A stretch of 64,000 nucleotides of DNA. It comes from Escherichia coli. GTDB taxonomy: Bacteria; Pseudomonadota; Gammaproteobacteria; Enterobacterales; Enterobacteriaceae. The position numbers and the translations under genes were made by a program. Location of the stretch: NCBI GenBank assembly GCA_009729775.1, contig GCA_009729775.1_4081.1; one strand, written 5' to 3'. The notes under the pieces are model-generated. The model was not told the DNA's origin and did not search any database. It worked only from the letters and a program-made list of their open reading frames with translations. Positions 5,317 to 60,331 of the stretch are shown piece by piece; the first letter of the stretch is position 1; every line of letters starts with the position of its first letter.

Positions 5317-5325
5317 ATTATATCA
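5317..5325 (-). promoter_or_regulatory. sigma70-like extended -10 promoter (TGATATAAT)
   Basis: Minus-strand TGnTATAAT located between terminator 5358-5379 and start 5282. Confidence 0.4.
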
Positions 5326-5357
5326 TATTTTTATAAGTTGTCCCACTTATAAAAGAA

Positions 5358-24254: not shown

Positions 24255-24362
24255 GATAAAATATTATACCACAACTATAACGCATATCTTATCTCTTTGT
24301 CATCAATCGATGTTCAGATACTAATAATTATATCAGTTATTGGTTTTTTGTCCCACTATTTT

Positions 24363-33984: not shown

Positions 33985-34413
33985 TTAGTTAATAATAAAG
34001 GTAATTTCAGGATTCATTTCCGAAACTGCATTGCGTTTACTTCTATCCCATAGTATTCTGTTATTATACAAAGAAGAATCACATACGACAAGTAAGCAAT
34101 TTCTTAATCTACTTACAGTACTTTGATTATTTAAATCAGTTTCTGAGATAAAAAATACATTTTCAGGAACTACTAAAGGAATAGATTTATCAAAAAACAA
34201 AACTACAATAGGTCTTGTTGTATGAACTGATTTAACAAAATCCAAAATACTATTATAAAAATTAGTTTCTTTAGTAATTACTGACGGATCTTTAATTCTT
34301 TTCAAATATTGCTGTGGTAATTGATGTTCGTCTTTTATCTGAAACTCAAAATATTCTTTGAATAACATTTGTGTTAATTCAGATTTATCGGATATTTTCG
34401 TTGTGTTACTCAT
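33985..34413 (-). CDS. hypothetical protein (142 aa)
   Basis: ORF in track. Confidence 0.5.
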   Translation of the reverse strand: MSNTTKISDKSELTQMLFKEYFEFQIKDEHQLPQQYLKRIKDPSVITKETNFYNSILDFVKSVHTTRPIVVLFFDKSIPLVVPENVFFISETDLNNQSTVSRLRNCLLVVCDSSLYNNRILWDRSKRNAVSEMNPEITFIIN

Positions 34414-34558
34414 TCACTTCGTTCTCTCGTAACTCAAGAAGTCACTGCGTTTACTTCGTAAACTAGTTCCTTCTGAAAATGATAATGTACTTTAAAAACT
34501 TGACGGGATTTGTTGAGGACTATTACATCCCCCCGCAGGGGAATGAAGGTAATAAAAA

Positions 34559-34576
34559 AGAGACAATTAAGTCTCT
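34559..34576 (-). terminator. rho-independent terminator-like hairpin
   Basis: Stem AGAGAC/GTCTCT, 6-nt loop, followed on minus strand by TTTTTTATT. Confidence 0.5.
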
Positions 34577-34615
34577 CTTGACGATGATGGCATCGGATAT
34601 TATCGAATTGCGAAT

Positions 34616-34654
34616 TTCTCAAATTTTGGACGGATCTTTCTTGTACCAAAATTT
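34616..34654. repeat. direct repeat copy 1 (TTCTCAAATTTTGGACG...CTTTCTTGTA) with own 9-bp hairpin
   Basis: 17-nt core identical to copy 2; stem AAATTTTGG/CCAAAATTT. Confidence 0.6.
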
Positions 34655-34767
34655 AGAGAGCGAAAGCGGGTTGCTCGGTTTCTCTCTATCGCAGTCATAT
34701 GCAACGGTCGCTGGTCTTTTCATCAACAGCACTCAGTACTAACTCTATTCGATCAAAGTAGTACTTG

Positions 34768-34809
34768 TTCTCAAATTTTGGACGCAACTTTCTTGTAAAA
34801 ATTGCGTCC
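34768..34809. repeat. direct repeat copy 2 with 8-bp hairpin GGACGCAA/TTGCGTCC
   Basis: 17-nt core plus CTTTCTTGTA identical to copy 1; 152 bp from copy 1. Confidence 0.6.
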
Positions 34810-35103
34810 GCTATCCTTGAACTCCCTTAGCAAATCTGGTAAGGTGCGAACCTTATACATCTATCTAGGAACTCTCTGTATGCTTATCGGAGTTCTTTAT
34901 ACAGCCGTGTCGCCGTGATTCGTGGTCTTACATCGTGTTTGTTTAAATGCCAGTACTCTAACAGGTTTCTTCTGCTGTTCGCTACAACGGTAAAGCTCAT
35001 CTATCCTTTACATTTTCAAGAGAAGTAGGTTCTCAGTGTCCATTTTTCAATGTCCGTTGTCATTTTCTATATACATTATATCATTGGAACATATAATGTC
35101 CCA

Positions 35104-35580
35104 TTACATGTATACTTTTTTTAAATCCTTAGAACAACGATCAAAAATTGTGTTTATGAATTCAACATCTTCGATAATATTCGAATCGTTAGCAACATTT
35201 TCATTTCTTGTCGTGTTCCTATATGTGTGTTCAGGATGATTGTATACCACCTTGACTACATTATTTAGGTCTATAAAATTTGACGTTTTTTGTGTATAAG
35301 AAGCCTGAAGCTTGATGAGTTTACCATCATTCTCAAGATTGGTTTTATGAATTAGTTCTTCAATGCCAGTTAAATGGCTATAGCTATCTTTTTCTTTTAC
35401 AAAAGTAATAGTAACAAGAACTGCTTTCTCATCTCCCATATCGGAAATGTTTTTTACAGCACTGATAATTTCTAAGTTTGAAAAATCTAATTCTTTAAGC
35501 ATTTTACAAATATTTCCACAAAGTTCGATAAGTGATAATTTCTTCTCTGGTAACAGAAACTTCATTGCACTTAACACCAT
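35104..35580 (-). CDS. hypothetical protein (158 aa; alternative start at 35502)
   Basis: ORF in track; overlaps upstream ORF unless Met27 (35502) is the start. Confidence 0.45.
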   Translation of the reverse strand: MVLSAMKFLLPEKKLSLIELCGNICKMLKELDFSNLEIISAVKNISDMGDEKAVLVTITFVKEKDSYSHLTGIEELIHKTNLENDGKLIKLQASYTQKTSNFIDLNNVVKVVYNHPEHTYRNTTRNENVANDSNIIEDVEFINTIFDRCSKDLKKVYM

Positions 35581-35912: not shown

Positions 35913-36524
35913 TCAATCATGTTTATTCAATTTCTTCTGTTCTTTTTTCAAAGCTTTCATATGACGACCAAACTCTCGAACATGCCATAGATGATCAGTT
36001 TCCCATAATTCTTGACGTAACCTACGTTCTTCTAGTAGTTTCGACTTGTCAATGTTATTTTTCTTTTTTTGTACATTAAAGAAATTATTCATATGTTCTT
36101 GGAGAAGATTACGACCTTTAACTTTCTCAAGAAACTCATCAACTGTTTCAGTTTTATTCGAACGTAGTTGATTACATCTGGAGCACATAGTATTAAAGTT
36201 TGACTCTAAATCAGGTCCACCCTTAGATGCCAGATGATTATGGTCAACTGTCATTAAAACTTCATAAAGACCACATACAGCATATACATTTAAATGTGGT
36301 TTACCATATACTGGATCAGAACATAATGAACGTTCAATGCGTACTTCAGTAGCTTCAATCCCACATGCCACGCATTTTGGATTCTTAATAAATGTAAGAA
36401 CTTTTTGTGGGAAATATCGAAAAGTAATACCATTTAAAGTGTAGCGTTTCATCTTAGTACTTCGTTGATTTAATTCGTCAAGAAGTGATAATTTGGTCGT
36501 ATAGTAAACATGATATTTGTTCAT
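35913..36524 (-). CDS. HNH homing endonuclease
   Basis: HNH motif VDHNHLASKGG...N and Cys pairs (CVACG, CSRCN); track ORF extends to 36569 but Met16 avoids overlap with upstream gene. Confidence 0.8.
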   Translation of the reverse strand: MNKYHVYYTTKLSLLDELNQRSTKMKRYTLNGITFRYFPQKVLTFIKNPKCVACGIEATEVRIERSLCSDPVYGKPHLNVYAVCGLYEVLMTVDHNHLASKGGPDLESNFNTMCSRCNQLRSNKTETVDEFLEKVKGRNLLQEHMNNFFNVQKKKNNIDKSKLLEERRLRQELWETDHLWHVREFGRHMKALKKEQKKLNKHD

Positions 36525-36525
36525 T

Positions 36526-36834
36526 TTATTCCTTGATATTGATTTTAATATCTTTACCTTGTAAATCACGAATAGTTTTAATTAATGCATCATGTTTTAA
36601 AGCACATTCGTTGTATACTGCATCCCAACGAGTAAGTACTTTAAGAATTTCTGCACCATCATAACCTTTAAAACCATTTTTGTCAATCATAATTTTTTGT
36701 GGTAGAGGTGTATCATCATCACATCTTTCTAACAGAATTTCTTGTTTAATTGGTGCAGGGGATTGTAGTTTTACTTGTTCTGCACATCCACTTATAATTA
36801 AAAAAGAAATAAACGGAACTAATAATTTTTTCAT
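36526..36834 (-). CDS. lipoprotein, o-spanin candidate
   Basis: 102 aa; signal peptide with lipobox IISGC; Pro-containing mature region; ATGA overlap with upstream i-spanin candidate. Confidence 0.45.
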   Translation of the reverse strand: MKKLLVPFISFLIISGCAEQVKLQSPAPIKQEILLERCDDDTPLPQKIMIDKNGFKGYDGAEILKVLTRWDAVYNECALKHDALIKTIRDLQGKDIKINIKE

Positions 36835-60263: not shown

Positions 60264-60331
60264 TTTATATCTCCTTCTGTATTATGATAACAACATTATA
60301 TCATGTATGGGACATAATGTCCCATACAATA

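Follow-up and report, generated by a model that had tools for sequence, protein, structure and literature searches.

A large structured non-coding RNA family of Rak2-like jumbo phages and integrative islands of Enterobacteriaceae

The RNA element, its predicted promoter and its probable strand

We analysed a 64,000-nucleotide stretch of DNA deposited under Escherichia coli (contig GCA_009729775.1_4081.1; hereafter the window), in which a 690-bp gap between genes, at positions 34414–35103, holds one copy of a 520–650-nt (~0.5–0.65 kb) element family. The region is 99–100% identical to Asteriusvirus jumbo coliphages (PBECO4, 121Q, phAPEC6, G17 and others; 348–384 kb). The gap is flanked by minus-strand open reading frames (ORFs) at 33985–34413 and 35104–35580, and all neighbouring genes likewise lie on the minus strand. 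An earlier note on this DNA had described the gap as free of credible ORFs, locally GC-richer and furnished with several perfect hairpins, as well as with a duplicated element whose copies, each with its own stem-loop, lie 152 bp apart. This description holds throughout: the gap contains only ORFs of 87 amino acids (aa) on the plus strand and 71 aa on the minus strand, none of them conserved in 44 homologous copies, and its GC content is 0.35–0.42 compared with 0.25–0.33 in the flanks. All three hairpins are present, CCCCGCAGGGG at 34530–34541, (A)GAGAC/GTCTC(T) at 34560–34575 and GAACTC/GAGTTC at 34869–34874 with 34890–34895, and the duplicated element occupies 34616–34645 and 34768–34797, in stem-loops with z-scores of −2.8 and −6.3, respectively.

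Comparison with homologous phages by RNAalifold, as the earlier note had proposed, revealed a conserved, covarying structure. We aligned 44 non-redundant copies (alignment A2) and derived helices from RNAalifold together with a search for covarying stacks, which gave a consensus of 19 helices and 82 pairs. Three of these helices are assigned as pseudoknots, because each joins the loop of a hairpin to a single strand far away. The fraction of paired cells is 97.1%, compared with 77.7% in column-shuffled alignments and 37–47% when the partners are slid by 1–3 columns, and none of 500 shuffles reached the observed value on any of five measures. Compensatory changes, with both sides altered in 60 of the 82 pairs (598 cells), go beyond these controls, as expected of a structured non-coding RNA. 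The predicted 516-nt minus-strand RNA folds with a minimum free energy (MFE) of −130.5 kcal/mol (z = −3.4), which none of 100 shuffled sequences matched. Unpaired nucleotides are conserved across all paralogues and across the copies in bacterial islands described below, which fits a shared three-dimensional fold or ligand.

The same 44 copies share no conserved reading frame: when the longest ATG-initiated ORF is taken from each, the lengths have a median of 46 aa and go down to 25 aa, and strand and frame vary. Small ‘hypothetical protein’ coding sequences are annotated inside the element in 121Q (gene 516, corresponding to window ~34587–34742, plus strand), G17, SHEFM2K, JP4 and Salmonella SD phages; these are probably spurious, since no ORF is conserved among the copies. 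We conclude that the gap very probably holds one unit of a conserved structured RNA family. Of the candidates listed in the earlier note, small RNA genes thus proved right in kind but not in scale: instead of several small RNAs, the gap holds one large unit, in which a predicted promoter precedes a body of ~516 nt whose 3′ continuation is conserved as well.

A promoter scan of the minus strand identified GGGACA and TATAAT separated by a 16-nt spacer, with an upstream TG (10 of 12 matches), that is, a predicted sigma-70 promoter of the extended −10 type at 35103–35075 that is conserved in homologues. Its −35-like box, TGGGACA at 35097–35103, reads TGAAAC or TGAAAT in other copies and keeps the same distance in phage and island copies; the extended −10 box, TGATATAAT at 35075–35083, contains a TATAAT that is invariant in all 44 aligned copies and lies 16–18 nt downstream of the conserved TGGGAC/TGAAAC box. 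The composite promoter class TGRRAC, 14–16 nt, TGnTATAAT occurs four times in the window, always on the minus strand (5317–5345, 24327–24355, 35075–35103 and 60295–60324), versus 0.06 occurrences expected, and only one of the four is followed by a structured element. The near-identical phage genome OR844650.1 contains 15 occurrences, all on one strand. This class matches a ‘divergent RpoD-like promoter’ with the −35 sequence TGAAACG that has been described for phages CBB and GAP32 and was reported mainly upstream of DNA-synthesis genes (PMC5259590). In one class of paralogues (A2 columns 38–80; nine example loci), a strong hairpin and U6 directly follow the −10 box, and at these loci the upstream gene ends 1–3 nt before the promoter. 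Such a hairpin would be a promoter-proximal terminator or a 5′ stabilising hairpin.

The functional RNA is probably the minus strand. The predicted promoter lies on this strand, as does a covarying hairpin with a U-run at 34551–34575, and 28 of 50 examined copies are situated between minus-strand genes. Conserved unpaired columns are A-rich when read on this strand (A 42, U 18, G 13, C 9), and positions in covarying helices have majority states that are wobble pairs on it (G.U 27, A-U 11, U-A 6; U.G 34, C-G 8; U.G 31, C-G 7). In the curated structure, 97.1% of cells pair on the minus strand versus 87.9% on the plus strand, with 321 G.U versus 20 A.C cells, totals that are biased because the curated helices were found with a rule allowing G.U on the minus strand. 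In a symmetric control that applied one helix-finding rule, the minus strand gave 15 helices, 67 pairs and 76 extra pair types, and the plus strand 13 helices, 49 pairs and 42 extra pair types. Hairpin energies were mixed as a strand test, which we traced to invariant G.U or A.C positions.

Copies in jumbo phages and in integrative islands

We searched for the element beyond Asteriusvirus. Sensitive blastn found its DNA to be 66–72% identical over ~475 nt in distant Rak2-like genera, with several matching places per record; the phages matched include Cronobacter GAP32, Pectobacterium CBB, Serratia BF, Yersinia fHe-Yen9-04 and Salmonella Munch, as well as phages of Erwinia, Xanthomonas and Klebsiella. 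In IMG/VR, pattern scanning (two scans) and an nhmmer profile together yielded 51 distinct full-length copies, each 490–630 nt long and several per jumbo-phage contig. The 352-kb genome OR844650.1 carries exactly four copies in one orientation, at 18.3, 128.3, 208.1 and 261.5 kb, of which the copy at 208.1 kb is the orthologue of the window copy. Further copies are absent from the 64-kb window, the paralogues being located elsewhere in the genome. Related Rak2-like jumbo phages carry at least 4–6 copies per genome. When an island copy was used as the query, 71 records in a collection of 50,697 phage records matched, and among the matches listed all are Rak2-like phages of 310–384 kb.

The phage copies fall into several types of syntenic locus; each type recurs across genera, and the flanking genes of different types are unrelated. 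The copies, which have diverged by ~30%, are therefore old paralogues under selection and do not stem from recent insertion. All four flank orientations are represented among the phage copies, 28 of 50 examined copies lying between minus-strand genes, and at the baseplate-hub/endonuclease VII locus the RNA is oriented against or away from all neighbouring genes. The flanking proteins point to no function: most are without a Pfam match, and the others are DUF7325 and an ADP-ribosylglycohydrolase. No rep or initiator gene adjoins the element; the window copy is flanked by one protein without a Pfam match and one DUF7325 protein, and the flanks differ between locus types.

A second home of the family is found in bacterial chromosomes. 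A 21-base gapped pattern derived from the core of the element matched 8 records in 185,579 species genomes, of which seven proved to be full-length homologues (nhmmer E 1e-80 to 1e-97) in Enterobacteriaceae, among them the complete chromosome of Serratia fonticola as well as Enterobacter chinensis, another Serratia and Buttiauxella. Strains with the island include Serratia fonticola GTA-SR07, Enterobacter chinensis 170198 and E. coli LR-29-1. Genome and metagenome matches define an integrative island of ~10 kb with one RNA gene each. The island begins with a tyrosine integrase or a large serine recombinase, followed by the RNA gene on the recombinase strand, a CI-like S24 repressor convergent with the RNA gene, an HTH_35 (Ner-like) protein, a 286-aa membrane protein, a 138-aa protein and a small serine recombinase; position 8 holds variable cargo, including Kiwa KwaB (E 2e-100) and Lamassu LmuA (E 8e-165). 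No gene lies downstream of the RNA gene in the islands, where it converges on the gene of the CI-like repressor. The island copies retain the promoter architecture of the phage copies, in the form TGAAAT/C, 17–18 nt, TATACT, and in a rough neighbour-joining tree these copies form one clade among the clades of phage paralogues. No replication or packaging genes are present in the island parts seen, and the RNA element stands out as their one large non-coding core feature. It is also, so far, the single component that islands and phages have in common.

The KwaB variant of the island is carried by the 232-kb metagenome contig ERZ773156.17, and another variant carries LmuA. In ERZ773156.17, three extra genes encoding membrane or unknown proteins are located between the RNA gene and the serine recombinase, so that this position behaves as a cargo hotspot. 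Among 5,426 E. coli genomes, only two have the element, as a partial and diverged copy within an island at ffs. In E. coli LR-29-1 (NZ_AP027515.1, ~3,472,900–3,483,600), this ~10.8-kb island lies between ybaA and the signal recognition particle RNA gene ffs and contains a diverged RNA copy, which occupies a 1.4-kb gap that bears no annotation, together with an integrase interrupted by IS3 and a small recombinase. A dual-OB/DUF488/DUF4326 gene trio looks like defence cargo, and no replication or packaging genes are annotated in the LR-29-1 island. In PLSDB (72,556 plasmids), an island copy used as the query gave no match at blastn sensitivity.

Anatomy of the window copy

The predicted RNA body of the window copy comprises ~516 nt of the minus strand (34553–35068), from a putative start ~7 nt after the −10 box to a putative end at a hairpin and U-run. 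It opens with a 5′ pseudoknot domain (35060–34981, mapped from the consensus), in which pseudoknot helix 1 joins 35053–35060 (ACAACGGA) to 34984–34991 (ACCGUUGU), the latter being the loop of hairpin 34994–34996/34981–34983. Seven of the eight pairs of this helix change on both sides, for example to CUGAUUGA/UCAAUCAG in other copies. The following domain (34901–34978) consists of a closing helix (34974–34978/34901–34905), an inner helix (34961–34964/34913–34916) and a variable hairpin; four of its five outer pairs covary, and both helices are 100% paired. All six pairs of the hairpin GAACUC/GAGUUC (34869–34895) covary, with up to four Watson–Crick pair types per position. Beyond it lies the UAAGG/CCUUA/UAAGGGAG region (~34824–34858).

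The insertion hairpin at ‘site 2’ (34767–34822) holds the repeat copy at 34768–34797 and is formed by a closing helix (34819–34822/34767–34770), of which all four pairs covary, and an inner stem GGACGCAA/UUGCGUCC; its free energy is −23.3 kcal/mol (z −6.3), and it is absent from many copies. It is followed by a hairpin at 34735–34765 (34762–34765/34735–34738 and 34754–34758/34743–34747), in which U.G (31 copies) alternates with C-G (7 copies) on the minus strand. The loop of this hairpin, 34748–34751, forms pseudoknot helix 2 with 34604–34607, with pair states CG 19/UA 19, GC 31/AU 7, UA 26/AU 17 and AU 32/GC 6. After a further hairpin (34709–34731), the most conserved core (34662–34705) is itself pseudoknotted, with an enclosing helix 34689–34693/34609–34613. 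Pseudoknot helix 3 pairs GUUGC (34701–34705) with GCAAC (34670–34674) within the loop of hairpin 34682–34686/34662–34666; it is 100% paired and has two covarying pairs. In the core hairpin, pair 567/589 is G.U in 27 copies, A-U in 11 and U-A in 6, and the G.U would be A.C on the plus strand. The insertion hairpin at ‘site 1’ (34617–34659) holds the repeat copy at 34616–34645 and has a free energy of −12.4 kcal/mol (z −2.8); all three pairs of its base helix (34657–34659/34617–34619) covary, and only some copies have it.

The two copies of the direct repeat are identical at 28 of 30 bases and lie 152 bp apart from start to start, and a degenerate 25-nt form of the repeat occurs at these two places only in the 64-kb window, versus 0.01 occurrences expected by chance. 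Across the family, the repeat is an optional hairpin module (plus-strand consensus AAATTTTGGACGGATCTATATTGTA) inserted at either or both of the two scaffold sites. Among 106 distinct copies, both sites are occupied in 20, site 2 only in 41, site 1 only in 6 and neither in 39, counts that are lower bounds as occupancy was scored by fuzzy match; all 14 island-type copies have the module at both sites. The strand that pairs with the module differs between site 1 and site 2; the conserved module sequence is therefore more probably a motif for tertiary contacts or binding, and less probably just a stem. The replication-origin iterons envisaged in the earlier note find no support: Tandem Repeats Finder (minimum score 30) found no tandem repeat in the gap and hence no array of three or more regularly spaced repeats of ~17–22 bp, there are two repeat copies only, these are optional in homologues, and their stems covary as RNA.

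Towards the 3′ end, a hairpin GAUG/CGUC (~34580–34597) precedes the terminator-like hairpin at 34551–34575, in which GAGAC-UUAAUU-GUCUC is followed by UUUUUUAUU, including U6. Its free energy is −10.8 kcal/mol (z −4.1), and all five stem pairs covary among the copies that have it. The conserved 3′ segment (34490–34550) contains the hairpin (U)CCCC-UGC-GGGGG (34529–34542) and then GGAUG...AAAUCCCGUCAAG, and the nhmmer profile match reaches ~34490. Conservation is very high over the CCCC-UGC-GGGGG hairpin and GGAUG...CCCGUCAAG (34500–34542), and GGGGGAUG and CGUCA, both invariant in the 44 aligned copies, are among the most conserved sequences of the family. In the CCCC/GGGG stem, the only variation is U.G in place of C-G when it is read as minus-strand RNA; the plus strand would then have A.C. 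The remaining 34414–34489 is less conserved and may form a tail or the 5′ untranslated region of ORF 33985–34413; it contains a small hairpin GUUUAC-GAA-GUAAAC (34449–34463), and other copies carry an analogous, covarying GAA-loop hairpin (CAUUC-GAA-GAAUG).

Directly upstream of the element promoter, ORF 35104–35580 (minus strand) encodes a DUF7325 family protein (Pfam E 1e-54), whose 121Q orthologue is annotated as a structural protein. About 0.8 kb to the right of the element, the gene at window ~35913–36569 (minus strand) is the orthologue of PBECO4 gp059 and 121Q gp513, which bears an HNH endonuclease annotation; we saw no link between this gene and the element.

Related RNAs, competing explanations and proposed role

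The scans for known RNAs suggested in the earlier note returned no relatives. Rfam 15, whose families include group I and II introns, GOLLD, ROOL, tmRNA, RNase P and 6S, gave no match at gathering thresholds in the whole window, and at E<=10 the gap gave four weak, unrelated eukaryotic matches with E values of 1–7 (three small nucleolar RNAs and one long non-coding RNA region). No family matched within the element at nine other copy-bearing loci at E<=5, and on the bacterial loci only an unrelated TPP riboswitch and STnc450 were found nearby. ARAGORN detected no tRNA or tmRNA genes in the 64-kb window. The literature searched contained no description of an RNA of Rak2-like phages that matches the element, and the RNA family is previously undescribed.

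The closest systems resemble the element in part. GOLLD and ROOL are non-coding RNAs of 500–800 nt with many covarying helices and pseudoknots, phage- or prophage-borne and of unknown function (PMC12286853, PMC7567579). The element is equally large, phage-borne, rich in helices and pseudoknotted, but it has no match to either Rfam model even at E<=10, is not adjacent to tRNA genes, and resides in Enterobacteriaceae jumbo phages with 4–6 copies as well as in integrase-linked islands. Large phages also possess non-coding RNAs defined by RNA-seq, such as PA5oct ncRNA001–004 (236–619 nt) and an ICP1 transcript of ~800 nt, likewise of unknown function; they fill ORF-less gaps of 0.5–1 kb, and some are among the most abundant transcripts (PMC7318152, PMC7567579). 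The element shares with the RNAs of PA5oct, a distant relative of the Rak2 group, its location in an ORF-less gap of a large lytic phage. PA5oct ncRNA002–004 have no similarity to the element family (nhmmer --max, E<=10), and the PA5oct and ICP1 RNAs are known from expression data, whereas the present family is known from conserved structure in sequence alone. In PA5oct (MK797984.1), both genes flanking the 619-nt ncRNA004 lie on the opposite strand, so that large stand-alone non-coding RNA genes oriented against their neighbours exist in a distant relative.

Two further groups of systems bear on function. RNA II of ColE1 is ~550 nt long, its folding matters and its promoter drives a transcript of several hundred nucleotides; T4 has several R-loop origins per genome, among them oriF(uvsY) and oriG(34). 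The element resembles these in its predicted promoter and a predicted transcript of several hundred nucleotides. Its putative body of ~516–580 nt ends near a G6/C-rich hairpin, and the sequence defines no transition point of the RNA II type. It differs from RNA II in a far more elaborate structure and in the lack of any match of the island copy among the 72,556 plasmids. At the level of sequence, we identified no equivalent of the antisense RNA I, no RNase H site and no distinct AT-rich unwinding element. RNA mimicry in phage conflict is exemplified by the pseudo-ToxI RNA of phage PhiTE, directed against ToxIN, and by the RNA immunity factor CI of satellite P4. As here, non-coding RNAs stand on both sides of a conflict between phage and defence or phage and satellite; those RNAs, however, are short (~36-nt repeats and ~80 nt) and have known protein or RNA targets, whereas the element spans 0.5–0.65 kb. 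A regulatory RNA of P4 is mentioned in PMC7567579.

The main rival to the role we propose below is an RNA-primed replication origin, in which the structured transcript would form a persistent R-loop and prime the leading strand, much as at T4 oriF/oriG or with ColE1 RNA II, the four copies would be origins, and the islands, by carrying their own copy, would be replicated by the jumbo-phage replisome in the manner of satellites. We consider this model rather unlikely. It would account for four copies spread in a single orientation over 18, 128, 208 and 262 kb of 352 kb, for paralogues kept at syntenic positions despite ~30% divergence, for a promoter class that mainly precedes DNA-synthesis genes in the CBB study, for a conserved 3′ end with a G6 run and a C-rich hairpin, and for ~10-kb islands whose only large non-coding core feature is the RNA and which, in the parts seen, show no replication or packaging genes; in addition, the length of ~550 nt is presumably close to that of ColE1 RNA II, and we take these phages to encode a T4-like replisome. 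Yet 19 covarying helices, three pseudoknots and conserved unpaired nucleotides far exceed what known R-loop primers need, the plasmid collection gave no match to the island copy, no antisense regulator, DNA-unwinding element or (with Tandem Repeats Finder) iterons were identified, and the cumulative GC skew passes through the element without inflection. A quite unlikely reading, in our judgement, takes the element as a long cis-acting 5′ leader of downstream minus-strand genes that would alter the transcribing polymerase or the access of ribosomes, for instance through processive antitermination like the put RNA of HK022, attenuation or riboswitch-like control. The co-orientation of 28 of 50 copies with both neighbours fits a leader, as does the next gene, which usually begins 20–250 nt after the element and in the window (ORF 33985–34413) 77 nt after the profile match; the hairpin and U-run could be a regulated attenuator, and the strong hairpin and U6 right after the −10 box of some paralogues could be accommodated as well. 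A leader is hard to reconcile with the islands and the baseplate-hub/endonuclease VII locus, where the RNA points against or away from all neighbours, with downstream genes that are unrelated between locus types, and with a size and complexity far above those of known leaders.

Two explanations of a different kind concern the nature of the element itself. The plus-strand motif at 34499–34527 (YTGACG, 16/17 nt, T(T/A)nCAT) is sigma-70-like and points into the element, and a plus-strand RNA, antisense to the neighbours, could start from this TTGACG-17-TTACAT sequence, or the hairpins could act in single-stranded DNA. This is very unlikely in our estimation, even though the motif is conserved at its 16/17-nt spacing, several central hairpins are 2–3.5 kcal/mol more stable as plus-strand RNA, a GAAA ‘tetraloop’ would be formed, and wobble counts on the pairs predicted for both strands are balanced (94 G.U plus versus 89 minus). 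In nearly all copies the −10-like hexamer is without the critical A at its second position, and the scan made no call; the ‘spacer’ of the motif is itself conserved and pairs as minus-strand RNA, so that the motif is more likely part of the 3′ hairpins of the minus-strand RNA than a weak antisense promoter. Moreover, a single invariant G.U accounts for most of the extra stability; the GAAA corresponds to the 3′ strand (CUUUC) of a covarying helix, and on the plus strand the middle pair of this helix would become A.C in 27 of 44 copies; and the A-rich minus-strand loops, the pairing totals and the symmetric helix control all favour the minus strand. Extremely unlikely, finally, is a relic of a mobile or selfish element (an ORF-less group I/II intron or a miniature inverted-repeat transposable element) or a missed protein-coding gene. 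The multiple copies, the HNH endonuclease gene ~0.8 kb away and the small ORFs annotated inside the element in some database records might suggest this. The degraded mobile element or intron of the earlier note nevertheless finds no support: the element interrupts no gene and matches no Rfam group I/II intron at E<=10, its near-end inverted repeats are imperfect (75–93% complementary over 13–30 nt) and not at the element boundaries, and its copies, far from being newly inserted, are old, diverged and in synteny, kept intact by purifying selection across several phage genera. For a coding gene, no ORF is conserved.

We favour, with evenly balanced confidence, a self-contained minus-strand non-coding RNA gene that acts in trans in the conflict among phage, host and island. 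Host sigma-70 RNA polymerase would start near 35068 on the minus strand, at the TGGGAC-16 nt-TGATATAAT promoter, and transcribe leftward for ~516 nt to the weak hairpin and U-run at 34551–34575, or read through to ~34490. The RNA would then work as an independent folded molecule, either by itself or together with a protein of host or phage, and several dispersed gene copies would supply it at a high dose. It would take part in a conflict among jumbo phage, host and anti-phage islands, in which it may serve one side as a mimic or decoy of the RNA of the other, or serve both in neutralising a common host factor. A free-standing, trans-acting RNA is favoured because flank orientations vary, island copies converge on the repressor gene and unpaired nucleotides are conserved; the conflict is suggested because island copies adjoin an integrase or serine recombinase and the islands carry KwaB or LmuA.

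Several observations weigh against this reading. The 4–6 diverged paralogues (~30%) are kept at fixed, dispersed positions, which a role in cis explains more naturally, and tblastn with the 286-aa and 138-aa core proteins of the islands gave no match among the 50,697 phage records. The hairpin at 34551–34575 is weak, A+U-rich, missing from several paralogues and not called by a simple terminator scan, so the RNA could run on into ORF 33985–34413. Besides the balanced wobble counts and the bias in the pairing totals, the MFE of the whole sequence favours neither strand. The start, end, strand and expression of the RNA are deduced from the sequence, and the trans mechanism and the role in conflict are our best guess from sequence and context. 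An alternative that we consider unlikely is that the RNA is essential to Rak2-like phages, as a catalytic or self-assembling RNA or as an origin primer, and that the islands exploit this dependence with a copy of their own under a promoter of the phage type. If so, an RNA-only decoy that poisons a phage function would constitute a defence made of RNA alone; if the island copy were an origin mimic, the islands would be replicated and spread by the infecting jumbo phage and would be the first satellites of jumbo phages.

Large, intricately folded RNAs of bacteria and phages are rare, and past cases proved to be ribozymes, ribonucleoprotein scaffolds or, recently, RNA-only cages. The family described here is attractive in this respect through its strong covariation (19 helices, three pseudoknots), its culturable E. 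coli phage carriers (PBECO4, 121Q, phAPEC6 and others) and its 4–6 copies per 350-kb genome. In practical terms, the ‘hypothetical proteins’ that many database records place within the element are probably spurious. The element represents a new large structured RNA family with an unusual distribution: jumbo coliphages that can be cultured carry several copies, and islands with defence genes have it in their core. Its presence as a fixed part of small, defence-carrying host islands ties the family to phage-defence conflict or to jumbo-phage replication.

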